Shown in pieces: positions 11,297-31,203 of a stretch of 43,596 nucleotides of DNA. Position 1 is the first letter of the stretch, and every line of letters begins with the position of its first letter. The DNA comes from a phage. Below the pieces are notes generated by a model. That model did not search any database and had not been told where the DNA came from. It was given only the letters and a program-made list of their open reading frames with translations. The stretch is from sequence record PX871048.2. One strand, written 5' to 3'. Made by a program: the position numbers and the translations under genes.

Positions 11297-11297
11297 T

Positions 11298-11847: not shown

Positions 11848-11975
11848 TCCAGCACCCACAGATAAATTGCGATGAACATACCTAATACGGCTACAATCAT
11901 GCCGTATTGGCCCTCGTGACAGTAGACACCGGCGGCAAATCCCGCCAGTACTGTGATAATCAGTTTACTTAGCAT
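11844..11975 (-). CDS. small membrane protein (43 aa)
   Basis: start overlaps last codons of polymerase gene; hydrophobic. Confidence 0.35.
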   Translation of the reverse strand: MLSKLIITVLAGFAAGVYCHEGQYGMIVAVLGMFIAIYLWVLE

Positions 11976-14238: not shown

Positions 14239-14253
14239 TATTTTGACCCTTAG

Positions 14254-14276
14254 TAAAAAGGCCCAATAAAGGGCCT
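14254..14276 (-). terminator. hairpin plus T-tract (partial terminator/attenuator between SSB-like gene and polymerase)
   Basis: AGGCCC-AATAAA-GGGCCT followed on minus strand by TTTTT. Confidence 0.5.
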
Positions 14277-14296
14277 TAATTAAACAGATTCAGATA

Positions 14297-14929
14297 TTAA
14301 CCACGGCGACGACGTTCGCGGCGCGGTGCTTCATCTTCTTCGTCGTCTTCCAGGTCGTCGGTGCTCGCTACTACACTGGAGCCGCCGAAGCGTTTACCTT
14401 CGCCCATATACTTGATGCCGAGGATGGTAGCGCACAGGTTTTTCCAATCTTTGTGCCACCATAATTCTACAGATACGTTTGCGATACATCCGCTATATAC
14501 CTGCTCGCCTTCTATTTCTTTCCCGTCGATGTTGAAATCAGGCTCGGTTTGTTTTTCACCTTTAGCCGATGTCATAATCACCGGTTGGCGGTTGTTTGTA
14601 GCGCGGAAATACAGACCTTCTTCAAAATCCTCAATCGGATTATCTCGCATTGCCAGGTCACGTACACAGCACTTGTCCGCGTGGTGGTCTACGCCGTAGT
14701 TGGCCTTCATCCATTTTTCAGCCGCAGCGGTCCCGATCGCCTCTGTTACAACTTCCAGTGCGGTGTCGTAAAGCGCGTCGATTTGAGGGTGGTCAGGCTG
14801 CATAAGAACCGTAACCTGGTATTTGCCTTTAATCAGTTTACCGGTTTTCTTGTCCTCAGAGTCGGCAGCACGTTCAAATACGTTAACCCATGCAGTGTTT
14901 ACTCTACGCAGATTCAGTTTAATACCCAT
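14297..14929 (-). CDS. ssDNA-binding protein-like (DUF2815-type) with acidic C-terminal tail
   Basis: 210 aa, C-terminus DDLEDDEEDEAP; usual neighbour of Cas4-like exonuclease and PolA in phage replication modules. Confidence 0.55.
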   Translation of the reverse strand: MGIKLNLRRVNTAWVNVFERAADSEDKKTGKLIKGKYQVTVLMQPDHPQIDALYDTALEVVTEAIGTAAAEKWMKANYGVDHHADKCCVRDLAMRDNPIEDFEEGLYFRATNNRQPVIMTSAKGEKQTEPDFNIDGKEIEGEQVYSGCIANVSVELWWHKDWKNLCATILGIKYMGEGKRFGGSSVVASTDDLEDDEEDEAPRRERRRRG

Positions 14930-14987
14930 CGTGATTTCTCGCTTTTAAGTTTCGTTTACTCCGGGAACTGCCCGGCCAGTGATTAGA

Positions 14988-15016
14988 AATATAATAGCTA
15001 ACTATTCAGGTGTCAA
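14988..15016 (-). promoter_or_regulatory. sigma70-type promoter, class II (TTGACA-17-TATATT) with AATAG-N4-CTATT palindrome
   Basis: minus-strand reading TTGACA CCTGAATAGTTAGCTAT TATATT; leader contains hairpin CCGGGAACTGCCCGG. Confidence 0.55.
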
Positions 15017-15279
15017 CCCTTCCAGCCAGTTATTTTCTCAACTATCAGTACGTATTCGAAAGGCCACTCCAAATTCTGTACCCATTTAATTTCCTTTGTC
15101 GAGTCCAGTTGCTCGGGGTCTACCGTTTCATACTTAATCGCAACGTAGACCGTGAGTGGGAGAAGGATAATTAGAAGCGGCACTAACATTGCCCAGTAAC
15201 AAACAAATGCCACAAACCCACCAAAAACCCTGAACGTTTTACGAATCATTCCAAATCCTCCTCTGTTACCTGATTCCAC
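15013..15279 (-). CDS. small membrane protein
   Basis: 88 aa with two hydrophobic helices (FGGFVAFVCYWAMLVPLLIILLPLTVYVAI). Confidence 0.45.
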   Translation of the reverse strand: MESGNRGGFGMIRKTFRVFGGFVAFVCYWAMLVPLLIILLPLTVYVAIKYETVDPEQLDSTKEIKWVQNLEWPFEYVLIVEKITGWKG

Positions 15280-16496
15280 TCAGGCCGTTTGTCGTCTGCC
15301 GTTGTGACACATGGCGCGCCTGGCTTACGGGTAATAAACGGCTCAAGCGCGGCCATCTCATCCGCCGAAAGAACTTTTGCTGCCTCCGTAGGGGACATCA
15401 ATACCTCTTTTTTGAGAATGTCGCCGTGTGACACTTCAATCGCATCGGCATCTTTCCACGCACGATTACCTGGGCGGCCTTCAACGAGTTTGTACCCCGG
15501 CACTTTCTTACCAGAATACAAAGCGGCGGCCATAGCTTTCTCAACCTTGTCGATGTGCTGGCGCAACAACGGCAACTTCTCATACTCAGCTACGAGTTGC
15601 TCAGGCGTAAGTTCCAGTGCAAAGTCGTCCTCCAGTTCTTCCGCCAGCACCGCGTTAACCGTCTTTGTACGCGCGGCGCACTGTTCAGAGAACCGGCACC
15701 ACTGGCAACCATCGACCGACGGCTTGAAGTCCGACGCTTTAAGGTTCTTCTTGCCGCGGAAATAGGCATCAAGAGCTAACAGCGCGCGTTTGCGTGCGAA
15801 CTTAGCGAACAGTTCCAGACCTTCAACCGAGATGTCCCACTCCGACGCACCCCCAGCGTACGGCTGGAAGATGACCAGACGAACAACTGTGATGTTATAT
15901 CGTCTCTTGAGGCGGCGATAAACACCGAGAGCGTATAGCATAAGCTGTTTGTTTTCTTTCGCTTCGACACGATGCCGTCCGGTTTTCAGGTCACCAATAA
16001 TGAGCATGTGCGCGTCGGTGTTCGCCAGTTCCTGAACAGCAACAAGGTCGGCGGTTCCGAACGTCTCAACGCCTTCATACCCAGGATGCAACACCTCAGT
16101 GAGATTTACGCGCATTTCTAGCTTGGCGTAAGTCGCTACATCGATAATCGCTTTGCAGTAGTCGGTGTGCTTGCGCACCTGCTCAATCATGTCGGCCGTA
16201 ATCAGTACCGCGCCTTTCATAGGGCTGATTAGAGCCTTAATCTGGCCTTTACCCTCGTCCAGCACGTAAGCACCTACTTCACGCTCTAACGGCAACGCAG
16301 TGCCTTTGATGTACTGGTTTAGATGGACCTCTGCTATAGTGTGGCACGCGGTTCCCGTAACGGCGGATTTACCAGATGTATTAGGAATATCTTTTTCACA
16401 GGCCAGTGATGCGGCACAACTCAGCCACTTTTTAGCCCCAGACGGCGACAGCAGGGCGTGCACATCGTTATTGCCGCCGCGTTCCTTTAAAATCAT
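15246..16496 (-). CDS. PD-(D/E)XK exonuclease, Cas4/RecB-like (DUF2800-type) with C-terminal Cys cluster
   Basis: IIGDLKTG..VEAKENKQLMLYALGVY nuclease motifs; C-terminal CQWCRFSEQC; start set at ATG 16496 (MILKERGG) with GGAG RBS. Confidence 0.7.
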   Translation of the reverse strand: MILKERGGNNDVHALLSPSGAKKWLSCAASLACEKDIPNTSGKSAVTGTACHTIAEVHLNQYIKGTALPLEREVGAYVLDEGKGQIKALISPMKGAVLITADMIEQVRKHTDYCKAIIDVATYAKLEMRVNLTEVLHPGYEGVETFGTADLVAVQELANTDAHMLIIGDLKTGRHRVEAKENKQLMLYALGVYRRLKRRYNITVVRLVIFQPYAGGASEWDISVEGLELFAKFARKRALLALDAYFRGKKNLKASDFKPSVDGCQWCRFSEQCAARTKTVNAVLAEELEDDFALELTPEQLVAEYEKLPLLRQHIDKVEKAMAAALYSGKKVPGYKLVEGRPGNRAWKDADAIEVSHGDILKKEVLMSPTEAAKVLSADEMAALEPFITRKPGAPCVTTADDKRPEWNQVTEEDLE

Positions 16497-16765
16497 GCTC
16501 TGTTCTCCCACTGGTCGATTAAATGTCGTGTCTTGTGGCCGCAATGTAAGGCCCATCCATACATCGACTCGAAGACATAAAAGTCAGGTTTGGCGAATGT
16601 CGTGCGCTTAATCTGCGACACGTGACGGCCTATATCTTCAGGGCGCGGTACTTTGCCTAAGTACGCCATCTCTTCCATCTGGTGTGCACCGGACGGCGCA
16701 CGCAACAGCCATAGCGCCTCTGTGTTATCCCGCCTGTCCACGGCGCGGTAGAGTTGGTAAATCAT
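16493..16765 (-). CDS. hypothetical protein
   Basis: 90-aa ORF, ATGA-coupled to exonuclease gene. Confidence 0.45.
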   Translation of the reverse strand: MIYQLYRAVDRRDNTEALWLLRAPSGAHQMEEMAYLGKVPRPEDIGRHVSQIKRTTFAKPDFYVFESMYGWALHCGHKTRHLIDQWENRA

Positions 16766-17004
16766 TCGGCGTCCCTCGCTTCCAGCATTGCATCAGCCAT
16801 GATGTACGCCTTTTGCGCTACTTGCGCGGTGTTCCCTGCAGCTACAGGGTGAACTGCATCCGCTGGGTAACTAGCAAGCCACCCTTGAAGGGCTTTAGCC
16901 GCGAAATAATCGCGTAATGTCATGCCATCTTCCGTAGTCCAATCTGAGTTGAAGCCCACGTTACCCAACATAGGGAAAGCCTGTCCGCCTGTATTTTTAC
17001 GCAT
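16762..17004 (-). CDS. hypothetical protein
   Basis: 80-aa ORF, RBS GAGGG. Confidence 0.45.
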   Translation of the reverse strand: MRKNTGGQAFPMLGNVGFNSDWTTEDGMTLRDYFAAKALQGWLASYPADAVHPVAAGNTAQVAQKAYIMADAMLEARDAE

Positions 17005-17047
17005 AATTCCGACCCTCAGTTAAAGCGGCCCGAAGGCCGCGGGATAG

Positions 17048-17512
17048 TTATTCTTCTTCGAAATACTTGTTCTTGATTGCCGTCAGGCGTTCCAGGTATT
17101 CGGCCAGGTCTTCGTCTTTAATCGCGGCAATCTTCATCTTCTTACCGGTGAACTCTTCCAGCAGTTCGTCAGAATCATCACACGCGGCGTCGCTAGGGCC
17201 TTCGTTGATCGCATCGTCGATAGCCTGAATCTGGTCGCGCAGAGACTGGTAATCGACTTCTTCTTTCTCTTCTTCCGGCTCTGGCGTTGGTTCCTCTACT
17301 TTAGCTTTACGCGGCTTGCGTTTCGGCTTCTCTTCTTCTTCTGCCGGTTTAGTGTCAACGATGTCTTCACCTTCGACCGGGATTTCTTTTGTTGCAACAG
17401 TAGGCGTGATTGTTGCAGTTTCAGCAACGACAACTTGTTTCGCACTGTTCGCGGCAATCAGTTCATGCGCAACTACGAAACGTTCCAGTAATACTAAGAA
17501 TTTCTCTAACAT
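17048..17512 (-). CDS. acidic protein, first gene of replication operon
   Basis: 154 aa, E/D-rich with basic KPKRKPRKAK patch; RBS GAGAGGAG; downstream of promoter at about 17544-17572. Confidence 0.5.
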   Translation of the reverse strand: MLEKFLVLLERFVVAHELIAANSAKQVVVAETATITPTVATKEIPVEGEDIVDTKPAEEEEKPKRKPRKAKVEEPTPEPEEEKEEVDYQSLRDQIQAIDDAINEGPSDAACDDSDELLEEFTGKKMKIAAIKDEDLAEYLERLTAIKNKYFEEE

Positions 17513-17543
17513 TATTTATTCTCCTCTCGTTTGGTATGTGCCA

Positions 17544-17572
17544 ACTATAATAGCGAACTATTCACTTGTCAA
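17544..17572 (-). promoter_or_regulatory. sigma70-type promoter, class II (TTGACA-17-TATAGT) with AATAG-N4-CTATT palindrome
   Basis: minus-strand reading TTGACA AGTGAATAGTTCGCTAT TATAGT; divergent from HTH regulator gene. Confidence 0.6.
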
Positions 17573-17591
17573 TGGGCTTTTCTAAAATAAT

Positions 17592-17605
17592 TAATATGGT
17601 ACTAT
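17592..17605 (+). promoter_or_regulatory. imperfect operator copy (AATAT-GGTA-CTATT) overlapping -10 TACTAT upstream of HTH gene
   Basis: shares TACTATTCA core with class I promoters; weak -35. Confidence 0.4.
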
Positions 17606-17636
17606 TCACATATCAACTAACTAAGGAGTAATTGAC

Positions 17637-17852
17637 ATGCAACCATCTGAACTAGGCATCCGTGTAGAACAGCGCCGTAAAGAACTCGGTATCTCTCAGC
17701 GCCGTCTGGCGGTCCTGACCGGGGTTTCCCAGGGCGCAATTAACCAGCTTGCGCTCGGTGTAACTCAGGACGTCCGCCCGGCGACGCTGTTTAAACTGGC
17801 GGAAGTGCTGCAAGTAGACGCCAAGTGGCTGGCGTTCGGTGAAGGGGCTTAA
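17637..17852 (+). CDS. XRE-family (Cro/CI-type) helix-turn-helix transcriptional regulator
   Basis: 71 aa, LGISQRRLAVLTGVSQGAINQLALG HTH signature; RBS AAGGAG; divergent from replication operon. Confidence 0.8.
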   Translation: MQPSELGIRVEQRRKELGISQRRLAVLTGVSQGAINQLALGVTQDVRPATLFKLAEVLQVDAKWLAFGEGA

Positions 17853-17868
17853 CGCCCCTTTCTTTTTA
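17841..17868 (+). terminator. rho-independent terminator (AGGGGC-TTAAC-GCCCCT plus T-run)
   Basis: hairpin spanning stop codon followed by TTTCTTTTT. Confidence 0.65.
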
Positions 17869-17869
17869 C

Positions 17870-20137
17870 CTATTCCAAATCCTCCTCTGTCACTATCAGC
17901 ATTTCATTCGGCTCGTATATTGTCTTCGGAATCTTGTTATCCGTTATCCTGGTATTAAGCCTGTAACGACCAGGGATTATCTGATTGTTTTCGTCAGTAC
18001 CCGGAACAAGATACCCGGCCTCGACCATTTTCTTAATCTTCCCTCGCTCTATGGCTTCTTTGGAGTTAAACGCCTTCGCATTGGGGTCGGACTGTGCGAG
18101 CTTATTTGCGGCGGCTACCGTGATACCTTCGTTGCCGTTGTAGGTTCCTTCCGCCAGTTCAAACGCGGCCAGTATCGTGGCCTCGGAACTGTTGACGGCG
18201 TTCTCTACGGTTTTACGTACGTTTTCTTTACCTTCCTTTGTTAGCCCTTCTTCGCGCTCTTTTTCCTCGTCGGTTTTGAACGGTTCGAAACCCCACGGCA
18301 TCAGCACAAGCGCCTTGTGTGGTTCAGGCAGGTCGAGGTTTACTATTGTGCCGTATTCCTCTGTGCTACCGAGGAACTCAACAGCGCGGTACTCTTTCGG
18401 CGGCGGCGCTTCACGGAACTGTACCGACTCAAGCACCATACCAACCGTCTTCTGTTGAGGCCCGTGCTTAAATTTCGAGTGGTATACGTTTATCTGGCGG
18501 TCGGTCGCGCGTTCAATTGTCAGTTCCACGTCGACGCCAGCATACAGCGCCCCACTACCACGGGCTTTCTTTCCACCCTTCGGCGTATGGTGAACAACGC
18601 CTACCGCGGCTTTAGTCGCGTCACGCACTTCTTTCAGGATGGCGATAACTTTACCCATGCCGATTGCCGTTGATGAGCTGTTCTCGTCGAACTTATCAAT
18701 AGTCAGTGCCAGGGTCTGGTTGAGGGTGTCAAACGCGACCATGCCAATTGGCTCGTCGCCAGCAGTTTCGCGCATTAACTTAATCAGGCTCTTCAGTTTG
18801 CCGACTTCGCCCATATCGATGACATGTACGTAATCTTTACCCTCTGCGCCGTATTTAGCAGCGAGCGCGTCAATACGTGTACGTGTGGCCGCGCCGCCCT
18901 CACCGTCGATATAGAAGTGGTGGCAACGCTGCGTATCAGCTCCCGCAAACCGGTATCCTGCGGCGCTAAGGTACATCATCCCCAGTGTATAAAACGATTT
19001 GTACGTGCCAGATTCCCCGACGATATCCCAGATACAATCTGATGGCATGTACCCTTCAACGACGAAATCAGCCTTTACCGGTTCCGGTAACTCATCCTCC
19101 TCTGAGTCCTCGTCGTCTTCCAGGTCGTCGAGGCTGCATGAAACTGATTCACGCGCGCCCCAGCCAATTGCCTCAGCGACTTCACTGAACGGCAGCCCAG
19201 TCGCATCGCACGCATACTTCCACACCTCTTTCGGTGACATGCCTTCGGTTGCCGTAATGTCGGTGTCGTGAATCATGGTTACGTTAGGCGCTTCATATCC
19301 TTCGCGTGGGAAGCACAGCAGGAAGTCGTCCGGGCGCGGGGTAGGGTCACTGTAGTTTTCGGCGTGTTCTGGTGTGGCTGGCATTTTCAGGCCGCGGGGC
19401 GTCAGGACTCCGCCGTACTCGAACGCCAGTGCTTCGAACGCATCAGTAAACGCTGTGCGCAGTTCTTCCGGTATCTGGTAGTCAGATGCGCTGCTCACCT
19501 CGTAATCCGGGGTGCCTTCCAGTAACTCGTCCGGGTCAATCAGGTCGTTGCGGCGCGACCAGATAACGGTAGCGCCGACAGGAGGCAGGTACATCGGCTG
19601 GGACAGGGTAAAACCGCTGCGGTCGGCGCCCATGCCCTTGAAGAAGTGCTCCAGCAGACCGTGGCGGACGCGGATGATATCACCGCCTTCTACCGGGCGC
19701 GCCAGCGGCATGACGACACGGAAACGCGGCGATTCGTCAGTGTGCGATGCCGTAGTGTACAGGCACAACGCTACACGACTGCGCTTAACCAGACGCACAG
19801 CCTCCTGATACTCTTCCGGTGTTGCGCTGTCGAAGTCCAGATACGCCAGCGACGATTCGCTTACAGACGCGTCACAACGGTAGAAGAAGCCTTTACGCGC
19901 TTGCTTAAAGTCACCGGTTTCCGGGTCTTTTACGGTGCTGTGCGTTGAGTCGCACGCGGCGGTAATGTAGCCCGGCGCGGTCTTTGGGTTAATCCCGTCA
20001 CGAACAGCATCTAGCGGCTGGATTAACTCTTTCAGGTCGTCCAGTGTTGCCGTGTGCGTGGTTCTGACGTTTATATCCTTTTTCTCCGCCCGCGCGTTGC
20101 GACGAGACCATGAATAGGATAAAATTACATCGGACAT
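17870..20137 (-). CDS. DNA primase / replicative helicase (primase-polymerase-like N-terminus, RecA-like ATPase C-terminus)
   Basis: 755 aa; Walker A-like GESGTYKS; RBS GAAGGAA. Confidence 0.65.
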   Translation of the reverse strand: MSDVILSYSWSRRNARAEKKDINVRTTHTATLDDLKELIQPLDAVRDGINPKTAPGYITAACDSTHSTVKDPETGDFKQARKGFFYRCDASVSESSLAYLDFDSATPEEYQEAVRLVKRSRVALCLYTTASHTDESPRFRVVMPLARPVEGGDIIRVRHGLLEHFFKGMGADRSGFTLSQPMYLPPVGATVIWSRRNDLIDPDELLEGTPDYEVSSASDYQIPEELRTAFTDAFEALAFEYGGVLTPRGLKMPATPEHAENYSDPTPRPDDFLLCFPREGYEAPNVTMIHDTDITATEGMSPKEVWKYACDATGLPFSEVAEAIGWGARESVSCSLDDLEDDEDSEEDELPEPVKADFVVEGYMPSDCIWDIVGESGTYKSFYTLGMMYLSAAGYRFAGADTQRCHHFYIDGEGGAATRTRIDALAAKYGAEGKDYVHVIDMGEVGKLKSLIKLMRETAGDEPIGMVAFDTLNQTLALTIDKFDENSSSTAIGMGKVIAILKEVRDATKAAVGVVHHTPKGGKKARGSGALYAGVDVELTIERATDRQINVYHSKFKHGPQQKTVGMVLESVQFREAPPPKEYRAVEFLGSTEEYGTIVNLDLPEPHKALVLMPWGFEPFKTDEEKEREEGLTKEGKENVRKTVENAVNSSEATILAAFELAEGTYNGNEGITVAAANKLAQSDPNAKAFNSKEAIERGKIKKMVEAGYLVPGTDENNQIIPGRYRLNTRITDNKIPKTIYEPNEMLIVTEEDLE

Positions 20138-20195
20138 GTGTATATTCCTTCAGCAAGTAATTTAGCCTCGGCGTTCACCGCGTCGGGGCTTTCTT

Positions 20196-20486
20196 TTAAC
20201 GTTTAGCCAGACATTCCATTAAATGTGAATATTTTCTGTAATAGCAAGGAACTAAATCACACCCAAAATAATGATAAACATAAGCCAAGTGGTCAGTAAC
20301 ATCTATAGCGGCTGACATTGTGCTAAGACGGCGAAGGCTAATCAACTGTAATTCTTCCGTAATGCAAAATGGTTCATACGTATCAAGTTTGCAAGAAACG
20401 TTAAAACACAGAGCATAGCCGTCTTGTGCGGAGTAGACCAGAAATGCGCTGTCGTTCTCTTTATCGTGAAAAATTACACCTTTCAT
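20196..20486 (-). CDS. hypothetical protein
   Basis: 96-aa ORF, ATGA-coupled to upstream HTH gene. Confidence 0.45.
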   Translation of the reverse strand: MKGVIFHDKENDSAFLVYSAQDGYALCFNVSCKLDTYEPFCITEELQLISLRRLSTMSAAIDVTDHLAYVYHYFGCDLVPCYYRKYSHLMECLAKR

Positions 20487-20653
20487 TTCACATTCTCCTT
20501 AACCCACGCTTCTACTTTATTTCGGTCAAACGTACCCGGCATACGGCGGCCCATTACTTTAACGCTGCAATCAGGAAACTTCCCGCTTTTAATCCAGTTA
20601 TTTATTGTCTGACGAGTAACTCCGATTAATTCTGCAACCTCGTTTATAGTCAT
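20483..20653 (-). CDS. AlpA/excisionase-like HTH DNA-binding protein
   Basis: MTINEVAELIGVTRQTINNWIKSGKFP; start set at ATG 20653 with AGGAG RBS (track start 20743 rejected). Confidence 0.55.
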   Translation of the reverse strand: MTINEVAELIGVTRQTINNWIKSGKFPDCSVKVMGRRMPGTFDRNKVEAWVKENVK

Positions 20654-20758
20654 TTCACGATCTCCTGTGTAAGATGTAGTGAAGTATAAAGCGGTAACTT
20701 TGTAAAAGCAACCAAAACAACACACAAAGCCACTAAGATACAAAAGATGCTACTGGGA

Positions 20759-20787
20759 TTGACTTTTACTTAAAAATGTGCTAAGCT
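20759..20787 (+). promoter_or_regulatory. promoter TTGACT-17-TGnTAAGCT (extended -10) driving structured element A
   Basis: same hexamers, spacing and TGn as the promoter at about 33037-33065. Confidence 0.45.
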
Positions 20788-20891
20788 TCACTGAGCTTGT
20801 GAGATATCGCAAGCGACCGCGGAGCGGCAGGGAACGCAACGCGTGCCATTAGGCACTTGAGTGTAGTTCCGCTGGCGCTTTCGGAAGGGCC
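20782..20891 (+). ncRNA. candidate structured RNA element A (paralog of 33060-33168)
   Basis: about 75 percent identical to copy B with conserved blocks GAGCTTGTGA, AAGCGACCGCGG, TTCGGAAGGGCC and a covarying hairpin GTGCC-ATTA-GGCAC vs GGAC-GTAA-GTCC; no ORF. Confidence 0.35.
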
Positions 20892-21066
20892 AAAGTCTAT
20901 TGTTAATCCCGCCTAAATACCCAAGTCACTGATAATTAAAGTTTCTATAGTTGCCGTAAGCGAGGTAGAGAGTACTTCACTCCGCTGTGGTGGGCTAACG
21001 CCCACCCACTGCGTTGCGTACTCTTTTAAGAAACGAAAGAATCACAACGGCAACGTAACTATTCTC

Positions 21067-21095
21067 TTGCACACCCCAACATAATAGGATACTAT
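21067..21095 (+). promoter_or_regulatory. sigma70-type promoter, class I (TTGCAC-17-TACTAT) with AATAG-N4-CTATT palindrome over -10
   Basis: TTGCAC ACCCCAACATAATAGGA TACTAT; identical 33-mer at 42676-42707 on minus. Confidence 0.65.
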
Positions 21096-21129
21096 TCACT
21101 TATCGAAACGAGACAGAGGAGTGAGGGTT

Positions 21130-21321
21130 ATGTTTAAAAAGGGTCAGTTGGTTAAAAGTGCCGACGGTAAACACGGCATAATTGAATTAAAATCATCTTT
21201 ATTTCCCGGGCAGTACGTAGTGACTGTGCAAAAGGTGAGAGGTGTAAATTCGAAAACATACGTAGCAGAGAGGAACTTAGAACTCATCGGCAACAATTTT
21301 AAATTCAAAGGGGCGAAGTGA
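21130..21321 (+). CDS. hypothetical early protein
   Basis: ATG with GAGGAG RBS; 63 aa. Confidence 0.5.
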   Translation: MFKKGQLVKSADGKHGIIELKSSLFPGQYVVTVQKVRGVNSKTYVAERNLELIGNNFKFKGAK

Positions 21322-21521
21322 TGGAAGAATTATTTGAAGAACTGAAACATCATAAACTGGAGAAAGTACATTTCCAGGTAAACAGGTACGAGGTTGTTAT
21401 TTTAGATGGAAAAACAATTATCACAGATTCTGCCAGGAGAATGCTTCATATTCTACGCTTCATACGAACGGCATCGAATCATGATGCTCGTGCCTACGAC
21501 TCTGAGGGAGGTTGCCGTTAA
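21321..21521 (+). CDS. hypothetical early protein
   Basis: ORF in track, start ATG 21321. Confidence 0.45.
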   Translation: MEELFEELKHHKLEKVHFQVNRYEVVILDGKTIITDSARRMLHILRFIRTASNHDARAYDSEGGCR

Positions 21522-21712
21522 TGAGAATTCGTATAACTGATGTTGATTATGTTCCGCCGCCGGATTATGGCGACCCTTCGTTACGTGACTTCGGTATCTC
21601 AGTCGGAGATGAGTTCGAGGTCACATTCAGTAATGTTTATGGTCACCTAGTTGAACACCGTGGCGAGGAACTGTTAATACGCGACCGTGAATGCGAAGTT
21701 CTGGAGGACTAA
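21521..21712 (+). CDS. hypothetical early protein
   Basis: ATG 21521 with GGAGGGAGG RBS. Confidence 0.5.
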   Translation: MRIRITDVDYVPPPDYGDPSLRDFGISVGDEFEVTFSNVYGHLVEHRGEELLIRDRECEVLED

Positions 21713-21715
21713 GTT

Positions 21716-21859
21716 ATGAGAGAAGCATTCGAACGGTGGGCGGTAGTCGAGGGTCTGCCGGTTAACAAGGGTTCAAAGAAAGAGTACCTGAATGTTAAGA
21801 CGCGTCTCGCGTGGCGGGCGTGGAAAGCTGGTGTTTTGTTTATCGCGAATCAGAGGTGA
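21716..21859 (+). CDS. hypothetical protein (47 aa)
   Basis: tight spacing between flanking genes; below track cutoff. Confidence 0.35.
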   Translation: MREAFERWAVVEGLPVNKGSKKEYLNVKTRLAWRAWKAGVLFIANQR

Positions 21860-21862
21860 GAT

Positions 21863-22057
21863 ATGAGCGAGTGGGTTAAGTGTAGTGAGCGGATGCCGAT
21901 GGCGTGCCGTGACGTAATAATAACCGACATGGATATGGTTTCCAGAGTGGCATGGTTCAACGATAGAAATGACGCCTGGTATGTCACAGGGGTTGGGTGG
22001 TTTTCACGTGATGAAGTGACGCACTGGATGCCGTTACCAGAGCCGCCTGATGTGTGA
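21863..22057 (+). CDS. DUF551-like phage protein
   Basis: ERMP..VTHWMPLPEPP C-terminal signature; from memory. Confidence 0.55.
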   Translation: MSEWVKCSERMPMACRDVIITDMDMVSRVAWFNDRNDAWYVTGVGWFSRDEVTHWMPLPEPPDV

Positions 22058-22099
22058 TGTTATATTGTAACAATAGTTTGGGATTTTACTGAGTGACTT

Positions 22100-22130
22100 A
22101 CGCTGCTACACAGCAGCGTATCATTTTTCT
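22100..22130 (+). terminator. rho-independent terminator (ACGCTGCT-ACAC-AGCAGCGT plus T-run)
   Basis: 8-bp stem then TCATTTTTCTCATTTTT. Confidence 0.6.
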
Positions 22131-22190
22131 CATTTTTGTTCTATTTCACCAAACGCAACAATCGAAGCGACTATTGCAGGAGATGCAATA

Positions 22191-22364
22191 ATGGTTACTA
22201 AAGAACAGGCCGAACGACTAATCACGTTAATCGACACGATGATTGATGTGAAAACCGATTCAGCAACGGCAACAGAGGAATCCAGTACCTGGTCGCTTGA
22301 AGAAAGAGAAGCAGAAGCGGAGCGCGAGTTACAGGCGTTCATCGATTCAATAACACACCAATAA
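22191..22364 (+). CDS. hypothetical protein (57 aa)
   Basis: AGGAG RBS 6 nt upstream of ATG; replaces spurious antisense track ORF 22130..22381. Confidence 0.4.
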   Translation: MVTKEQAERLITLIDTMIDVKTDSATATEESSTWSLEEREAEAERELQAFIDSITHQ

Positions 22365-22371
22365 AATTTAC

Positions 22372-22400
22372 TTGCACACACAGATATAATAGACTACTAT
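22372..22400 (+). promoter_or_regulatory. sigma70-type promoter, class I (TTGCAC-17-TACTAT) with palindrome
   Basis: TTGCAC ACACAGATATAATAGAC TACTAT; leader begins ATCGAAACGAGAGGAG. Confidence 0.65.
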
Positions 22401-22429
22401 TCAGTTATCGAAACGAGAGGAGAGAGAAG

Positions 22430-22567
22430 ATGGGCTGGTACGGTAGCTGGGCATTAGGTGAACTGGTAGACGCTTACGAAATAATGGGTAGCACTTCGGT
22501 GTGCGACGGTGACACTAAATCGCTGCTAGTCGGGGTCGATGAGAAAAGGGGTGAAGACGATGAATAA
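22430..22567 (+). CDS. hypothetical protein (45 aa)
   Basis: first ORF after promoter, RBS GAGGAGAG. Confidence 0.4.
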   Translation: MGWYGSWALGELVDAYEIMGSTSVCDGDTKSLLVGVDEKRGEDDE

Positions 22568-22715
22568 TTTCGTGGTGCAAGCAATGTACGCTGAGGAAAT
22601 GGCAAAAAGTATGTTAGAGCAAACATTACATTTCGCTAAGCTGCAAGGGTTCGACGTACAGACAGTAGGCGACGAAATAGTATTGACCGAGAAGTCGGAG
22701 AACGGCGATGAGTAA
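22560..22715 (+). CDS. hypothetical protein (51 aa)
   Basis: overlaps neighbours by 8 nt each side. Confidence 0.35.
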   Translation: MNNFVVQAMYAEEMAKSMLEQTLHFAKLQGFDVQTVGDEIVLTEKSENGDE

Positions 22716-23184
22716 CAACGACGCAGTAATCGAGTTCCTGCTTAACCAACTACGGCAGCAGTTAACTAACAACCCGTACAAGCAACAGTGCGAAGACCTG
22801 GCGCATGAGGTGCTGTCACTTAAGAATCAGTTACGTGACGCGTCGGAGCTGGTGGCTGAGTTACAGAGCGAGTTACAACATCAGATTGACCTGGCGGCAG
22901 GCGTGTATAGATGGTCTACCGCGCATTTCGACGAGAAAGGTAAAGTCTTCAAGGTCGAGAGTGGGGTTAAGACAGAGCAATCCGGTTGCCGGAAGGAAGA
23001 TACCCAGGGATGCGAGCATGATTGGGTGCTAGATGAAAAAGGGGACTACTTCATTTGCGCTAAATGCGGTAAGCAAGAATCGGAATTGAGCGATTGCCAA
23101 CACGCTAATACCGTCGGTTTGCGCAAAGGCTTTGCGCCGGGTTTTACTAAAAAGTGTCTTGATTGCGGGGCTAAACTGAAATGA
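22708..23184 (+). CDS. zinc-ribbon protein (two CxxC pairs)
   Basis: 158 aa; CAKCG..CLDCG. Confidence 0.5.
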   Translation: MSNNDAVIEFLLNQLRQQLTNNPYKQQCEDLAHEVLSLKNQLRDASELVAELQSELQHQIDLAAGVYRWSTAHFDEKGKVFKVESGVKTEQSGCRKEDTQGCEHDWVLDEKGDYFICAKCGKQESELSDCQHANTVGLRKGFAPGFTKKCLDCGAKLK

Positions 23185-23384
23185 CCAGCATCTTATTTAT
23201 CTGGGTACTGTCCGCAGGCCAGATGCACCTGGCGGCATCAGAAACGTTTTACTCGATGGAGGCGTGCCAGTCAGCAGCACGCGCCGCAGAGAACGCGCAC
23301 TTTCTGTTTCAGGGCGATAAGCCCGACGATTCAGAGGTACGCGCTATCTGCTCACCTAAGCGACTTGGTAAACAGGAGAAGTGA
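23181..23384 (+). CDS. hypothetical protein with N-terminal hydrophobic segment
   Basis: 67 aa, ATGA overlap. Confidence 0.45.
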   Translation: MTSILFIWVLSAGQMHLAASETFYSMEACQSAARAAENAHFLFQGDKPDDSEVRAICSPKRLGKQEK

Positions 23385-23386
23385 TT

Positions 23387-23659
23387 ATGGTACAGAGATA
23401 CGATTTAAAAGAAGACTGTGTTACAGGGCATATTGACTTAGAGAAAGACGCAGACGGTGACTGGGTGCGTTATGGGGACTACAAGGAACTGGACGGCAGT
23501 TTCCAGGACTACATAACCGCTACGGACATGGAAATCGAGGGGCTTGTGTCAAGACTGGCAGAAGTAAACGCTGAGTTACAGAAATACAAAGACCAGTTCC
23601 CGGATTACGTCGAGTGCGCGAACTGTGGGTCAATTACACATGTGGAAGGGGTGGTGTGA
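23387..23659 (+). CDS. hypothetical protein (MVQRY paralog 1)
   Basis: start ATG 23387 after GGAGAAG RBS. Confidence 0.5.
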   Translation: MVQRYDLKEDCVTGHIDLEKDADGDWVRYGDYKELDGSFQDYITATDMEIEGLVSRLAEVNAELQKYKDQFPDYVECANCGSITHVEGVV

Positions 23660-23841
23660 TGGTACAGAGATATGAAGTTAGAGGGAGTGAAATTGGAAGT
23701 GGCGCGGATTGGGTCGCGGTCGTTACCTATGCGGATTACGTAAAACTTGAGCTTAAGTTACGTAGGCTTGCCAAACAGGTGATAGACCGCCAGTGCGACT
23801 GGAAGACGTATGAATTAGCGCGCGAGATTCTCGACCTATGA
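23659..23841 (+). CDS. hypothetical protein (MVQRY paralog 2)
   Basis: starts ATGGTACAGAGATA like the preceding gene; start moved to 23659. Confidence 0.45.
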   Translation: MVQRYEVRGSEIGSGADWVAVVTYADYVKLELKLRRLAKQVIDRQCDWKTYELAREILDL

Positions 23842-24131
23842 GCCTCGCAACTGACATCCTGAAACGAAGCGGCCTTACGCCGCTATCACCGAGAGCGAAC
23901 ACCCGGATATACAAGCGCCGCCGTAATTCGCTATACTCTGAGATTCAGGCCAGACGCAAAGCTGTCCGAGCCTGTGGATTCCAGAACGGGAAGGCCGTGA
24001 ACCTCGGTGAGTTTAAAACAAAGGAACGCGCCGCAATCGCTAATCGGCTATTTAATTACTGGAAATCGCTGGGGTACGATGATATTCCGACGAAACCGCA
24101 GAGACGGCAATACATCTGGAGACACAAATAA
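23838..24131 (+). CDS. basic protein, function unknown
   Basis: 97 aa, K/R-rich. Confidence 0.45.
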   Translation: MSLATDILKRSGLTPLSPRANTRIYKRRRNSLYSEIQARRKAVRACGFQNGKAVNLGEFKTKERAAIANRLFNYWKSLGYDDIPTKPQRRQYIWRHK

Positions 24132-24206
24132 ACCGTTATTAGGATAATTCCTACCCGTGGTATCCTCCAGTTACTGCATACTTAATACGCACCTGGAGGA
24201 TTCATC

Positions 24207-24515
24207 TTGGATAAATTTACTGAAACAGTGACAGGCTGGCTTCTGGCTGCCGCGCTAGCCGGAGGGGTAATCGGGCTACGACAACATAAGTCCGCTATTT
24301 CCGGCCCTATCGACGGATTCTGCTTTATCGCAACTGGCTTCACTTGCGCTGTATTTGGCGCACCTCTTGCCGCTCAATGGTTTGGAATCACGGGCGACCG
24401 TGAAATCGCTGGCCTGGGCTTCATTATCGCTATTCTCTGGATGCCTATCTATTCCCGTCTCTCCGGTATCGTTGCCGGAGAATACATCGCGCGTCGAGGA
24501 GGCACAGATGAATGA
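24207..24515 (+). CDS. putative holin (three predicted TM segments)
   Basis: TTG start after GGAGGA RBS; 102 aa; immediately upstream of endolysin. Confidence 0.55.
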   Translation: MDKFTETVTGWLLAAALAGGVIGLRQHKSAISGPIDGFCFIATGFTCAVFGAPLAAQWFGITGDREIAGLGFIIAILWMPIYSRLSGIVAGEYIARRGGTDE

Positions 24516-24780
24516 GTTATTCTGGTTCGGCGGTATGCTGGCAATCGGGGGTACATCGCTGTTTAATGTGTACCATCCCAGCGTTGATGACGGGCTGTTC
24601 GGCCGGGTGCTCTATATCCTGACTGCTATCGTCTGCGCCGCCGGATGTATCCACCTGTTACAGGGCAGCATGTCACCAACACTGCCCGAGACATTAATCA
24701 CATTAGTTGCGCTACGCCAGATTCGCCAGGCGTGGTTATCGTACGGAGGACATAAGCGTGTCTCGAAACATTTCAGATAA
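24508..24780 (+). CDS. putative second holin/antiholin (two TM segments)
   Basis: ATG 24508 after GAGGAGG; 90 aa membrane protein between holin and endolysin. Confidence 0.45.
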   Translation: MNELFWFGGMLAIGGTSLFNVYHPSVDDGLFGRVLYILTAIVCAAGCIHLLQGSMSPTLPETLITLVALRQIRQAWLSYGGHKRVSKHFR

Positions 24781-25243
24781 TGGATTGCATTTCACCGCTG
24801 CGTTCGAGGGATTCCGCGGGACTGCGTATCGTGCTACGCCTAACGAGAAGTACCTTACCATAGGCTACGGTAATTACGGCCCGCATGTTAAGGCGGGGCA
24901 AACCATCACGCCGGGGCAAGGCCTCCTGTTACTGAATCGCGATATGGCTAAGGCCGTAGCTGCGGTTGATGCAGCAGCGCACCATTCGCTTACACAGGCA
25001 CAGTTCGATGCAGTGTGCGACCTGGTGTATAACGCAGGTGCCGGCGTGATTGCCGCTACCACTGGTACGGGTAAGGCGCTGCGCACAGGCGATATTGCGA
25101 CGCTGCGGGCTAAGCTAGCGCTGTTCATAAACCAGAACGGCAAACCGCTACTCGGCTTGCGTCGCCGTACAGCCGGGAGACTGGCATTATTTGACGGTAA
25201 ACCGTGGCAAGAGGCTGAGGCTATTGGGAGGGCTGTTAAATGA
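24758..25243 (+). CDS. endolysin, GH24 phage lysozyme family
   Basis: FEGFRG..YLTIGYG and C-terminal LGLRRRTAGRLALF resemble T4/P22-type lysozymes; GTG start 24758 after GGAGGA. Confidence 0.7.
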   Translation: MSRNISDNGLHFTAAFEGFRGTAYRATPNEKYLTIGYGNYGPHVKAGQTITPGQGLLLLNRDMAKAVAAVDAAAHHSLTQAQFDAVCDLVYNAGAGVIAATTGTGKALRTGDIATLRAKLALFINQNGKPLLGLRRRTAGRLALFDGKPWQEAEAIGRAVK

Positions 25244-25370
25244 TGGACGAATATGAAGGCGTTTAGTAAACTTATCCCTACGCTGCTTGTGCTTGCATAC
25301 TAAGCCCCGGTAAACCTGAAGCAGCAGCCCAAGCGGTGGAGACTGCGTAGGGTTCAGGGGCTTATGACCG

Positions 25371-25402
25371 AAACCCGGACCGCGAATCCGGGTTTTATTT
25401 TA
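25371..25402 (+). terminator. rho-independent terminator (ACCCGGA..TCCGGGT plus TTTTATTTT)
   Basis: hairpin plus T-run after lysis genes. Confidence 0.7.
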
Positions 25403-25475
25403 CCAATTGACACCTAAGACTAATCCGACGATACTTAAATCACCTCCTGTTCTATCCCTCTGCTCTCCAGTTTTA

Positions 25476-25509
25476 TCCCGGCCCTGACCCAGCCGGGATT
25501 TTTTTTATC
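25476..25509 (+). terminator. second rho-independent terminator (CCCGGC..GCCGGG plus T9)
   Basis: tandem to previous terminator. Confidence 0.75.
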
Positions 25510-25528
25510 CATTTTCTGCTATGACTAG

Positions 25529-25557
25529 TTGACTATTACCCTCGACCCTATTATATT
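25529..25557 (+). promoter_or_regulatory. sigma70-type promoter TTGACT-17-TATATT
   Basis: consensus-like hexamers; leader begins ATCGACAACGAGA like the leaders at 21067 and 22372. Confidence 0.55.
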
Positions 25558-25590
25558 TACTCCATCGACAACGAGAACGGAGTAGAGAAG

Positions 25591-25668
25591 ATGAGTAACT
25601 TCCATAACGAACATGTGATGCAGTTCTACCGCAATAATCTGAAAACTAAAGGAGTGTTTGGAAAATGA
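25591..25668 (+). CDS. hypothetical peptide (25 aa)
   Basis: GGAG RBS; ATGA-coupled to next ORF. Confidence 0.3.
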
Positions 25669-25814
25669 AAATCACAGATATCGAAGCATTCAAAGACGCA
25701 CAACTGATGGCACGTATCGCCGTTAGTAACCTTAGTAGCAGTATCCCCGCTGACGCGTTCTGGTTCGCTGCGATGCAGACACTTAAAGCAGCATATGCAG
25801 GAGAGAAGAAATGA
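25665..25814 (+). CDS. hypothetical protein (49 aa)
   Basis: ATGA overlaps at both ends. Confidence 0.35.
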
Positions 25815-26008
25815 AAGTTAAAGCAGCTAAAATTCTCTGGTTACCCGCCCTTGACTATGTGACAGAGGGTAAAGTGTATGACGTATACAACCCGAAAACT
25901 ACTGGTTTTGGTTATATAGTTGCCGATGACGGCTGTGATATTTACATAGACTTTGGTAGCGATGAAGGTGATGGTTTCCACGGCGTTAAATGGGAGATTG
26001 TCGAATGA
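25811..26008 (+). CDS. hypothetical protein
   Basis: 65-aa ORF in track. Confidence 0.45.
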   Translation: MKVKAAKILWLPALDYVTEGKVYDVYNPKTTGFGYIVADDGCDIYIDFGSDEGDGFHGVKWEIVE

Positions 26009-27504: not shown

Positions 27505-27530
27505 AAGCCCTCTACGGAGGGCTTTTCTGT
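27505..27530 (+). terminator. rho-independent terminator (AGCCCTC-TACG-GAGGGCT plus T-run)
   Basis: hairpin then TTTTCTGT. Confidence 0.6.
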
Positions 27531-27542
27531 ACATCCCGCCCA

Positions 27543-27624
27543 ATCCCCTTATATAATCCCTTTAGACGCGCAGGGCGCGTCTGGTGCGCTCTGATGGTCA
27601 GACGCATATGCAAGGGGATTATAT
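27543..27624 (+). promoter_or_regulatory. late-operon control region: TATAAT-like box, 10-bp inverted repeat ATATAATCCC/GGGATTATAT flanking perfect hairpin AGACGCGC-AGG-GCGCGTCT
   Basis: symmetric structure immediately upstream of small terminase start. Confidence 0.4.
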
Positions 27625-28171
27625 GAAGCTGAAACTCAAGCAGCCATCGCCAGAGGTGGTGCAAGCTGCACATGAAGAAGCTGTTAGCGCAAACCGTCGC
27701 CGTAAACGACCGCGCGGTGAACAGAGCCTTTATCAATCGTCCCGTAATTCCGCAGCGTTGTGGGACACGGACTATTGCGACGAATTGATTCGTTTCTTCG
27801 ACCGCACGTCATGGGAGGCTATGCCGACCGGTGCGCACGGAGACTACAAAGCAGTCATTGCGGATAAACCGCCATCACTGGCTCGCTTCGCCTTACACAT
27901 CGGTGTCACTATCCCGATTATTAAGCTGTGGCTGCGTGAGATTCCGGCTTTCGCAGAAGCCTATGAAACTGCACAGGCGCTGGAAGAGGCGTATTTCACC
28001 GAGACCGGGGCCGCCGGTATCTCGGCTACGTTTGCCGCCGCGAAGCTGGGCCTCGGAAAAGAGAAACCAGTTGAATCAAGCGAAGAAACTGCACCTACTG
28101 AGATTATTTTCAGTGTTGCAGAGCCCGTGGGTAAAATCGTAACAACGAATATGGGTGAGGTAGAGGAATGA
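27623..28171 (+). CDS. terminase small subunit
   Basis: 182 aa directly upstream of and overlapping large terminase; RBS AAGGGGA; start 27623. Confidence 0.55.
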   Translation: MKLKLKQPSPEVVQAAHEEAVSANRRRKRPRGEQSLYQSSRNSAALWDTDYCDELIRFFDRTSWEAMPTGAHGDYKAVIADKPPSLARFALHIGVTIPIIKLWLREIPAFAEAYETAQALEEAYFTETGAAGISATFAAAKLGLGKEKPVESSEETAPTEIIFSVAEPVGKIVTTNMGEVEE

Positions 28172-29418
28172 GTATTCAGCTATCCGCCCCGCAGGCACTG
28201 TTCCTGAATTGCGATAACAAATACAAGGCCTATGTCGGCGGCTTCGGCAGCGGCAAGACATTTGTCGGCTGTCTGGACCTGCTTACTTTTATGCTAAAGC
28301 ATCCCGGTACGCGCCTCGGTTACTTCGGACCAACATACCCGGCCATCCGCGACATCTTCTACCCGACATTCGAGGAAGCGGCTAACCTGCTCGGCCTCGA
28401 TGTTCTGGTTAAATCCGGAGATAAAGAGGTTGTTGTTACCCGCGGTAAGACGGTGCTCGGAACTGTTATCTGCCGCTCGATGGATAACCCCGGCTCGATA
28501 GTCGGCTTCAAAATCGCGGCTGCGGTCGTGGATGAGCTGGACGTATTGAGCCGCGAGAAAGCTGAGCTGGCGTGGAACAAAATCGTAGCCCGTATGCGTC
28601 TTGTTATTCCTGGCGTAACCAACCACATCTCTGTAACCACGACGCCGGAAGGGTTCAAGTTCGTCTACGCCAAGTTCAAAGAGAATCCGACACCGAGTTA
28701 TTCAATGGTGCAGGCTTCCACTCACGAGAACGCGCGGTTCCTGCCGCCTGACTACATTAGTTCGCTGACCGAGACTTACCCCGCGCAACTGATTAACGCG
28801 TACCTGAACGGGGAGTTCGTCAACCTGACATCCGGCAGCGTGTACTACGCCTATGACCGCCGTAAGCATCGCAGCAAAGAGACAATTCAACCGGGCGACA
28901 CGTTGTACATCGGGCAGGACTTCAACGTTACGAAGAACGCCAGCGCCGTGTATGTACAGCGTAAAGATGGCTGGCACGCGGTGGCGGAACTGAAGGGTCT
29001 GTTCGATACGCCAGACACCGTGCGTGTAATTACTGAGAAGTGGAAGTCCCAAGGACACCGCATCGTCGTTTACCCCGACGCCAGCGGCAAGAACCGCAAG
29101 ACAAACTCGGCATCAATCTCAGATATCGCATTACTCCAGCAGGCCGGTTTTGATGTTCGCGCTAAACCAGCCAACCCTCCGGTTAAAGACCGTGTTTTAG
29201 CAGTGAATACCGCGCTGGAAAAAGGTAAGCTGTGGGTTAATGACCACTTATGCCCGGAGATAGCCAAGACGCTGGAGCAGCAGGCATACGACGATAACGG
29301 AGAGCCCGCTAAAGACGGCGTTATCGACCATATGGCGGATGCTCTCGGCTATCCTGTAGTTTACGAGATGCCGGTGGTTAAACCAGTAATCAACATCCCG
29401 GTGACTTTCGCACTTTAA
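28168..29418 (+). CDS. terminase large subunit
   Basis: Walker A GGFGSGKT, Walker B AAVVDELD, nuclease-like C-terminus; 416 aa. Confidence 0.85.
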   Translation: MSIQLSAPQALFLNCDNKYKAYVGGFGSGKTFVGCLDLLTFMLKHPGTRLGYFGPTYPAIRDIFYPTFEEAANLLGLDVLVKSGDKEVVVTRGKTVLGTVICRSMDNPGSIVGFKIAAAVVDELDVLSREKAELAWNKIVARMRLVIPGVTNHISVTTTPEGFKFVYAKFKENPTPSYSMVQASTHENARFLPPDYISSLTETYPAQLINAYLNGEFVNLTSGSVYYAYDRRKHRSKETIQPGDTLYIGQDFNVTKNASAVYVQRKDGWHAVAELKGLFDTPDTVRVITEKWKSQGHRIVVYPDASGKNRKTNSASISDIALLQQAGFDVRAKPANPPVKDRVLAVNTALEKGKLWVNDHLCPEIAKTLEQQAYDDNGEPAKDGVIDHMADALGYPVVYEMPVVKPVINIPVTFAL

Positions 29419-31178: not shown

Positions 31179-31203
31179 ACACCCTCCTGTTTAAGTTAAC
31201 TGA

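Follow-up and report, generated by a model that had tools for sequence, protein, structure and literature searches.

A conserved leader motif at the predicted starts of sigma70-type promoters in a Kagunavirus and in unrelated phages

Bacterial promoters are usually described by their -35 and -10 hexamers and a few accessory elements, the first transcribed bases being credited with diffuse, composition-dependent effects. Among phage promoters, the initial transcribed sequence (ITS) of T7 A1 gives facile promoter escape in three promoter contexts, and purine-rich non-template initial sequences lead to productive synthesis, whereas pyrimidine-rich ones lead to backtracking and abortive release (PMC12464699). 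Escape correlates with purines, with no defined ITS motif (PMC5961368). The second closely related system is the promoter-early stem-loop (PeSL) element, a repeated early promoter ending in a Shine-Dalgarno sequence (SD) and ATG (PMC2839356, PMC4122927); in the phages RB49 and phi1, crossovers of PeSL mini-circles were located downstream of the -10 and upstream of the SD or ATG (PMC2839356). Here we analyze the 43,596-nt phage sequence PX871048.2 (the window, meaning this whole stretch), in which four promoters, S1 to S4, begin their predicted transcripts with nearly identical dozen bases of the ATCGAAACGAGA type, and compare this leader motif with those of related and unrelated phages. With somewhat less than even confidence, we favor the reading that the motif is a start-anchored element of the initial transcribed sequence that helps promoter escape and leaves the mRNA with a U-poor 5' end, and that it is also a joint for the exchange of gene cassettes.

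Four promoters with a common leader

Kagunavirus/K1G-like records match positions 20000-26000 of the window at 88-92% identity (BLAST against phage records), the gene order is the same as in K1G and vB_Eco_K-01, and the 43.6-kb window is essentially a complete genome of a siphophage infecting E. coli (Guernseyvirinae, Kagunavirus). At each of S1 to S4, the motif follows a sigma70-type -10 hexamer after a 6-nt discriminator and stands at the predicted +1, transcription starts being predicted here and below from the spacing to the -10. The spacer between the hexamers is 17 nt in all four cases.

At S1 (promoter core 21067..21095, plus strand), the -35 TTGCAC (21067-21072) and the -10 TACTAT (21090-21095) are followed by the discriminator tcactt and by ATCGAAACGAGA at 21102-21113, predicted +1 to +12. 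Downstream lie CAGA, the SD GAGGAG (21116-21121; the stretch from motif to ATG reads cagaGGAGtgagggtt) and, at 21130, the ATG of a gene for a 63-aa protein (phrog_12538). S2 (22372..22400, plus) has the -35 TTGCAC (22372-22377), the -10 TACTAT (22395-22400), the discriminator tcagtt and ATCGAAACGAGA at 22407-22418, again predicted +1 to +12; the motif abuts GGAG (22419-22422, in GGAGagagaag), and ATG 22430 opens a 45-aa open reading frame (ORF). The stretch carrying the motif reads tATCGAAACGAGA at both S1 and S2. S3 (25529..25557, plus; -35 TTGACT 25529-25534, -10 TATATT 25552-25557, discriminator tactcc) starts with ATCGACAACGAGA at 25564-25576, which has an extra C and spans predicted +1 to +13, and its leader continues with ACGGAGTAGAGAAG (acGGAGtagagaag) up to ATG 25591. 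Finally, S4, the promoter of the replication operon (17544..17572, minus; -35 TTGACA 17572-17567, -10 TATAGT 17549-17544, discriminator tggcac), has the leader ATACCAAACGAGA at 17537-17525, predicted +1 to +13; the core AACGAGA occupies 17531-17525. Motif plus SD reads ATACCAAACGAGAGGAG here (17537-17521); after the motif come GGAG (17524-17521), the stretch GGAGaataaata and ATG 17512.

A leader shared by the three plus-strand promoters and present also in the minus-strand replication operon had been noticed in a sequence-only reading of this DNA, and the motif is indeed found at all four places. The elements which that reading took for -10 hexamers, at 21067, 22372 and 25529, are in fact the starts of the -35 hexamers (TTGCAC, TTGCAC and TTGACT), the -10 hexamers being those located above. 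Its consensus ATCGA(A/C)AACGAGA fits S3, and at S1 and S2 it is one base too long: a gapless search with the 13-nt pattern matches S3 only, because S1 and S2 carry the 12-mer and S3 a 13-mer with an inserted C.

The S1 and S2 copies are dependent, both being part of a direct repeat of 53 nt (21061-21113 and 22366-22418; identity 83%) that spans the complete promoter plus leader, so that S2 is a paralogue of S1. The leaders of S2 and S3 can be aligned from +1 through ATG despite their differing promoter cores. The window contains four copies of the promoter-SD-ATG cassette. A terminator-like hairpin with a T-run (about 25478-25508) lies about 20 nt 5' of the S3 -35, and a hairpin is found about 55 nt upstream of S1; none is adjacent to S2 or S4.

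On both strands of the window the core AACGAGA occurs nine times, against 5.6 expected. Four of the nine copies stand at +6 or +7 of four of the 11 recognizable promoters, for which the chance probability is about 1e-13. The remaining promoters (15016, 11359, 42708, 32970, 31235, 17600 and 27528) carry other leaders.

Conservation and recurrence of the motif

Within the subfamily, 64 IMG/VR loci were chosen independently of the motif, by homology to the protein encoded after S4, and four named genomes were added; the window and these 68 loci amount to 2.67 Mb, counted on both strands. In this set AACGAGA is present 242 times; a -35/-10 pair precedes 138 of these copies, 135 of which sit 11-12 nt after the -10, the distance from motif to start codon being 9-21 nt among the promoter-linked copies. 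Over 33 unique sequences of Kagunavirus and Jerseyvirus, invariance of the S3 leader is 90% or more, on a par with the hexamers; around it, spacer positions fall to 30-80% and coding sequence to 30-60%, and the discriminator varies too. In the Jerseyvirus orthologue of S1, AGGTTAACGAGAaaagagga (AGGTTAACGAGA), both flanks are altered and AACGAGA alone is retained. Serratia phage Tsm2 retains ATCGAAACGAGA and ACCGAAACGAGA behind differing promoter cores, and relatives at 30-40% protein identity have ATCAACAACGCAGAGG or ATCAACTTAACGAGGAG in the equivalent place. An alignment of leaders across related phages, proposed along with the sequence-only reading, thus shows the motif kept amid changed spacers, discriminators, flanks and coding sequence, which argues that in Guernseyvirinae the element is under purifying selection.

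The motif is also found in phages of other families. The anchored pattern TANNNT-N6-ATCGAAACGAGA matches at least 120 stretches of IMG/VR. There are 101 unique contexts among the matches listed, of which Guernseyvirinae account for only about a quarter; the others listed come mostly from unrelated contigs, each with a -35, spacer, -10 and discriminator of its own and an SD and ATG 8-25 nt past the motif. TTG is present at the -35 in 69 of the 101 contexts listed, an SD with a start codon in 68, and both in 57. For the reversed 12-mer with the same anchor, which yielded 76 stretches in the entire IMG/VR collection and 46 usable contexts, the corresponding counts are 7/46, 1/46 and 0/46. Clustering by upstream and discriminator sequence separates at least 30 promoter lineages that carry the exact 12-mer. 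Beyond the hexamers and the 12-mer, these lineages have in common just an A-tract upstream and, at -3 to -1, a weak taC, and no conservation after +12 was found across the 30 lineages in the clustered contexts. Named carriers are Vibrio phage KVP40 (three copies of the 12-mer in 14 kb), Aeromonas phage Aeh1, Salmonella KFS-SE2-like siphophages and the T1-like Tunavirus, the motif of the T1-like phages being preceded by a terminator hairpin and an extended -10. Further carriers are a ZF40-related group and two groups that lack a cultured relative. With any base allowed at +2 to +5, ATCGA was nonetheless present in 14 of the 19 promoter contexts, and therefore the 12-mer can be considered as one unit. 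The 13-mer of S3 occurs mostly in Guernseyvirinae, with few cases outside.

KVP40-like loci (L085, corresponding to the KVP40 region 99598-103598, L082, L180 and L188) have two promoter classes. The 12-mer is paired with a TTGC(A/G/T)T -35, which lies inside a terminator stem-loop, and a TATTAT -10, a class that parallels the TTGCAC/TACTAT class of the window. Promoters of the TTGACx / (A/G)ATAAT class have ATCAAAT-type starts instead of the 12-mer.

A pattern without the -10 was also used: the scan of IMG/VR with the 14-mer ATCGAAACGAGATA gave 109 contexts, in 40 of which a -10-like hexamer stands exactly 6 nt upstream, and in four more at 7 nt. The rest resemble random or coding matches, as expected for a 14-mer in IMG/VR, and a ribosome-binding site (RBS) without a promoter was found in none of the 109. 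Leaders as long as about 50 and about 190 nt also start with the 12-mer, which disfavors a pure ribosome-binding role. In loci without an ORF near the motif, a tRNA scan found no tRNA gene headed by it.

We considered the possibility that the motif is a feature of host promoters, scanning one genome per bacterial species with the same anchored pattern. The matches are scattered at random over all phyla; promoter and RBS features accompany three of 119 contexts, and two of these three are copies of viral contexts, that is, prophages. The possibility was rejected on these grounds. In the sampled genomes, the 12-mer looks phage-specific and essentially absent from bacterial promoters.

In related phages the same leader precedes different genes, the number of distinct downstream sequences being 12 for S3, 24 for the S2 type, nine for S4 and five for S1. 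Some genes have the full cassette in one phage; in another they stand in-operon and retain just the portion that begins at AACGAGA or at the SD. By analogy with PeSL cassettes, the identical leaders appear to double as exchange points for the downstream genes. For instance, the first gene behind S3 (25591-25668, plus) encodes a 25-aa homologue of T4 Stp (phrog_6763, E 5e-20, 96% identical to T4), a family annotated as activator of the host PrrC anticodon nuclease or restriction inhibitor. Stp homologues abound in T4-like phages, and among Kagunavirus and other small siphophages few carry one; this distribution suggests that the gene was exchanged between phage families. T4 stp itself, tried as a test of the motif, overlaps the end of ndd and has no promoter of its own, and hence is uninformative.

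It could be argued that exchange is the whole explanation, the conservation being a by-product of repeated PeSL-like recombination and the spread of small genes, with little function of the 12-mer itself. Identical leaders before 9-24 different genes, the 53-nt repeat of S1 and S2, the fact that a given gene may stand behind the whole cassette or lack its promoter half (the junctions lying at the motif) and the position of the stp homologue right behind the S3 leader, as in cross-family gene exchange, would all fit such a history, as would the location of the PeSL mini-circle crossovers. Nevertheless we regard it as unlikely, since the spacers, discriminators and downstream leaders of the 30 lineages are unrelated and thus no cassette-length homology has been transferred between them. 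Further, 12 bases are very short for homologous exchange, a crossover site needs no exact 6-nt spacing after varied -10 hexamers, and the hosts of the carriers are as distant as Vibrio, Aeromonas and Escherichia.

Possible roles of the motif

The shared leader had been proposed to be a common post-transcriptional signal. That it is a functional signal is strongly supported, by the purifying selection in Guernseyvirinae and by the same distance from the -10 in unrelated phages; its post-transcriptional nature finds no such support, as the leaders show no structure, complement, 16S pairing or Rfam match, and the motif is anchored to the -10 and the start rather than to the SD and ATG. No conserved structure was found in the leaders, whose folding z-scores are -0.06 to +0.79 against shuffles. 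A mini-hairpin U2C3G4/C8G9A10 (UCG-AAA-CGA) is attractive insofar as the S3 insertion falls in the loop and there is one double change, ATTGAAACAAGA. It was rejected, with seven pair-keeping and seven pair-breaking variants, the neutral ratio expected from transitions alone. Duplex energies with the E. coli rrsH 16S sequence are no better than those of shuffled motifs, 19-94% of the shuffles pairing at least as well. No Rfam family is matched in the window at gathering thresholds, and no complement of the motif elsewhere in the window, the candidate small RNA (sRNA) region included, goes beyond the shuffled range of -12 to -17.6 kcal/mol.

The last two results bear on pairing of the leader with conserved blocks of a candidate phage sRNA, such as the non-coding region 20744-21066. 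This idea draws on the conserved non-coding blocks near two promoters (repeat 20858-20902 / 33135-33179, 84% identical), and complementarity between these blocks and the leader had been put forward as a check of it. The best duplexes in the window are formed by the motif's own antisense strands, the only ones to pair strongly, and all others are in the shuffled range. With no Rfam match in addition, and with the motif present in phages that lack these blocks, an sRNA target is highly improbable.

The 45-nt direct repeat just mentioned, probably the candidate sRNA block of the earlier reader, is non-coding, and each copy lies beside an S1-type promoter, the two promoters being oppositely oriented relative to the repeat; it is not complementary to the leader motif. 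A possible antisense promoter, TCGATA-17-TATGTT at 21105-21077 (minus), runs through S1 toward the non-coding region 20744-21066, and its -10 is TATATT or TATACT in several relatives. As an explanation of the motif, through the reverse complement of TATCGA, an antisense promoter was rejected, being not present at S3 or in other phage families.

Across families, the motif keeps its position with respect to the -10 and the start, and not with respect to the SD or ATG, which favors a role in initiation or one that depends on the 5' end. The latter could take the form of a 5'-terminal RNA signal, the end pppAUCGAAACGAGA (5'-ppp-AUCGAAACGAGA), whose reading would depend on its place at the 5' end of the RNA. 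RppH or RNase E might act poorly on such an end, which would stabilize early mRNAs, or the end could be an entry or standby site of the 30S subunit on very short leaders. The exact start of the motif at the predicted +1 agrees with such a signal, as do the SD and start codon within 32 nt in 68 of the 101 cross-family contexts listed, the position of the window motifs 0-4 nt before GGAG, the unstructured and U-poor leaders and the few in-operon copies of AACGAGA with an SD in Guernseyvirinae. Still, the lack of conserved structure (with the neutral seven-to-seven split of the mini-hairpin), 16S pairing no better than that of shuffled motifs, a distance to the SD or start codon that varies across families from 3 nt to more than 190 nt, and an unbiased 14-mer scan without RBS-only contexts make us doubt it, and no factor is known to read this sequence. 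One further in-operon RBS candidate, gagcatacaaAACGAGAgggg, was rejected as third-codon wobble in coding sequence (ACG AAA CGN GAG).

The composition of the leaders points to the step of initial transcription. The motif leaders have 14-17 purines in their first 20 nt (20-mers of the genome have 10.0 on average, and 2.5% of them reach 15 or more), and after +2 their first U occurs at +20 to +25. In T7 A1, the corresponding values are 15 purines and a first U at +21, and in the other promoters of the window they are 9-14 purines with early U's. The anchoring at the start, the unrelated cores, the long leaders and a resemblance to T7 A1 and A3 favor a role in cis in initial transcription. We suggest a family of cassettes served by host sigma70 RNA polymerase and composed of -35, -10, 6-nt discriminator, ATCGA(C)AACGAGA, SD and ATG, in which the 12-mer would act like a third promoter element anchored at the transcription start. 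The purine-rich, nearly U-free non-template strand would favor, in cis, productive escape over abortive cycling during initial transcription, an unstructured and U-poor 5' end of the early mRNA would be a by-product, and the identical motif and leader could provide a patch of homology for swapping downstream genes in the manner of PeSL. Both the exact transcription start and the effect on escape are what we infer here.

Several points weigh against this escape-element reading. The exact 12-mer in 30 lineages exceeds any general need for purine richness, and sequence-specific reading of duplex DNA from +3 to +12 is not known for RNA polymerase. Among the carriers only the start of T7 A1 is mapped, the others being predicted. 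The motif has two CG steps, at +3/+4 and +8/+9, and pyrimidine-G steps near +6 slow escape in a screen (PMC5961368). The 12-mer is often combined with non-consensus cores (TTGCAT or TTGCAC with TATTAT or TACTAT), and promoters with such cores should be less limited by escape than consensus ones. A few in-operon copies of AACGAGA with an SD stand without a promoter right after a TAA stop (L009/L023, L034, L018 and L065), these four real cases being seen only within Guernseyvirinae. Finally, no host promoter in the bacterial sample was seen to use the motif, which is unfavorable if the motif is optimal for host polymerase.

The exact 12-mer in 30 lineages, its sharp borders and its absence from bacterial promoters suggest more than purine richness and point to a sequence-specific partner. 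It is possible, if doubtful, that ATCGAAACGAGA is a sequence-specific, start-anchored promoter element or a 5'-terminal RNA tag that is read, in unrelated gammaproteobacterial phages, by a conserved host component; the reader would be RNA polymerase in initial transcription or a factor binding RNA 5' ends.

An operator, too, would have an exact sequence, sharp borders and fixed phasing to the -10, and would be limited to a subset of promoters, as the motif is (four of 11 in the window). Such a site at +1 to +12 would be bound by a host- or phage-encoded DNA- or RNA-binding protein that switches the promoters off or on at a set time. This explanation seems to us improbable, since the motif is non-palindromic, its carriers belong to unrelated phage families without an obvious shared regulator, and in this phage the obvious operator candidate is another element, the palindrome AATAG-N4-CTATT, which at S1 (21083-21096) lies within the spacer and -10. 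No E. coli regulator site is known to match the motif.

With at most one mismatch, the palindrome AATAG-N4-CTATT has 12 matches in the window, eight of them perfect, against 0.99 expected, and it overlaps the spacer or -10 of every recognizable promoter, in both orientations relative to transcription. Besides the S1 copy, it is found at 11336-11349, 14993-15006, 17549-17562, 17593-17606, 22388-22401, 25524-25537, 31203-31216, 32941-32954 and 42678-42691. A 71-aa repressor-like helix-turn-helix protein is encoded at 17637-17852, between divergent promoters. The palindrome is likely an operator in this phage, and a candidate site for the 71-aa protein.

An exact 12-base element at +1 to +12 thus recurs in at least 30 unrelated lineages, with hosts in Escherichia, Salmonella, Serratia, Vibrio and Aeromonas. 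Provided that RNA polymerase or a 5'-end factor does read it, such an element would offer a compact, transferable module for strong expression, a marker for host-polymerase promoters and early genes in phage genomes, and a handle on how the first transcripts of phages outcompete host RNA; early transcripts of phages would bear a common mark that host transcripts do not have.

Other elements of the window and related systems

The window begins with the tail genes (1-9033, plus), followed by the replication block (9199-20743, minus), very small genes and lysis genes (21130-25243, plus) and, from 25591 (plus), further small genes and then the terminase and head genes. Three more promoters of the S1/S2 type, TTGCAsAC..CCAAyATAATAGnnTACTATTCA, were found on the minus strand of the structural region (31235-31196, 32970-32934 and 42708-42672). 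They drive small minus-strand ORFs, namely 30933-31178, a short one starting near 32910, and 42446-42637, whose product is superinfection-immunity-like (phrog_1039); in place of the motif, the leaders of these three promoters carry AAACAGGAG. The leader of promoter 15016 starts with CACTGGCCGGGCAGTTCCCGGAG (14981-14961, minus) and has a 5'-proximal hairpin CCGGG/CCCGG, kept even in relatives at 30-40% protein identity, which may be a 5' stabilizing stem-loop for the operon of the exonuclease, annealing protein and polymerase. At 27528-27582 (plus), another promoter-like sequence, TGTACA-18-TATAAT, is followed by a perfect hairpin AGACGCGC-AGG-GCGCGTCT at the predicted 5' end and lies just upstream of ORF 27584-28171, the one immediately before the ORF of the terminase (28168-29418).

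Near-identical GC hairpins AAGGCCCC-loop-GGGGCCTT, with A- and T-runs on both sides, occur at 9027-9064, 30902-30936, 40022-40057 and 14255-14281; these are probable bidirectional terminators bordering the plus- and minus-strand gene blocks. A perfect 59-nt tandem duplication (5965-6023 / 6024-6082) lies where the tail-gene ORFs 4520-6184 and 6064-7206 meet. Possible explanations are a duplication that causes a frameshift, an assembly artefact and recent slippage.

Among known systems, none of boxA, ops, the DnaA, PurR and Cra boxes or the sigma70-dependent pause is known to fit the motif. Sigma70-dependent promoter-proximal pause elements of the lambda PR' type need a -10-like TAnnnT on the non-template strand. 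Like the motif, they are conserved first transcribed bases of a phage promoter that are read in early transcription. Such a pause element was rejected here, as there is no TAnnnT in ATCGAAACGAGA or ATCGACAACGAGA and ATCGAAACGAGA has a single T; the lambda case differs also in that no Q-like antiterminator is evident in this phage.

The ITS of the strong early coliphage promoters T7 A1 and A3 and T5 N25 resemble the motif in occupying, on the infecting DNA, +1 to about +20 of sigma70 promoters with a purine-rich, U-poor non-template strand, and the promoters described here have both a recognizable -35/-10 pair, with predicted start, and such a strand. The annotated start of A1 is ATCGAGAGGG (ATCGAGAGGGACACGG) and that of A3 is ATGAAACGACAGTGAG, compared with ATCGAAACGAGACAGAGGAGTGAG at S1, so the T7 starts match the 12-mer only partly. 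Whereas the known ITS effects are those of composition and pausing and have no motif (PMC5961368), the present motif is an exact 12-mer that is found in 30 or more promoter lineages unrelated to one another.

Full-text searches, which cover the literature incompletely, found no phage paper with the 12-, 11- or 10-mer, and the sole Kagunavirus transcriptome paper gives no transcription starts or promoters. Judged from the sequences and papers compared, conservation in early phage ITS and PeSL cassettes are known, and the 12-mer and its cross-family occurrence were not found described. The PeSL and PmSL (promoter-middle stem-loop) elements of T4-type phages (Arbiol 2010; Comeau 2014) are likewise multi-copy, sigma70-like promoters of small variable early genes and sites of gene replacement. 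The PeSL papers name the -35, -10, stem-loop and SD, and neither they nor the papers on T4-like promoters describe elements other than those up to the start site and the SD; a conserved +1 to +12 element and a spread outside T4-type phages are thus points of difference. Further, PeSL were defined in T4-type myoviruses, whereas the carrier described here is a siphophage with an adjacent terminator hairpin at S3 only. The 12-mer promoters of KVP40 show the stem-loop and TTGCWT/TATTAT layout of the PeSL/PmSL elements of nt-1 and KVP40. With the leaders described here, the PeSL idea, conserved regulatory cassettes as joints for gene shuffling, extends beyond the T4-type phages.

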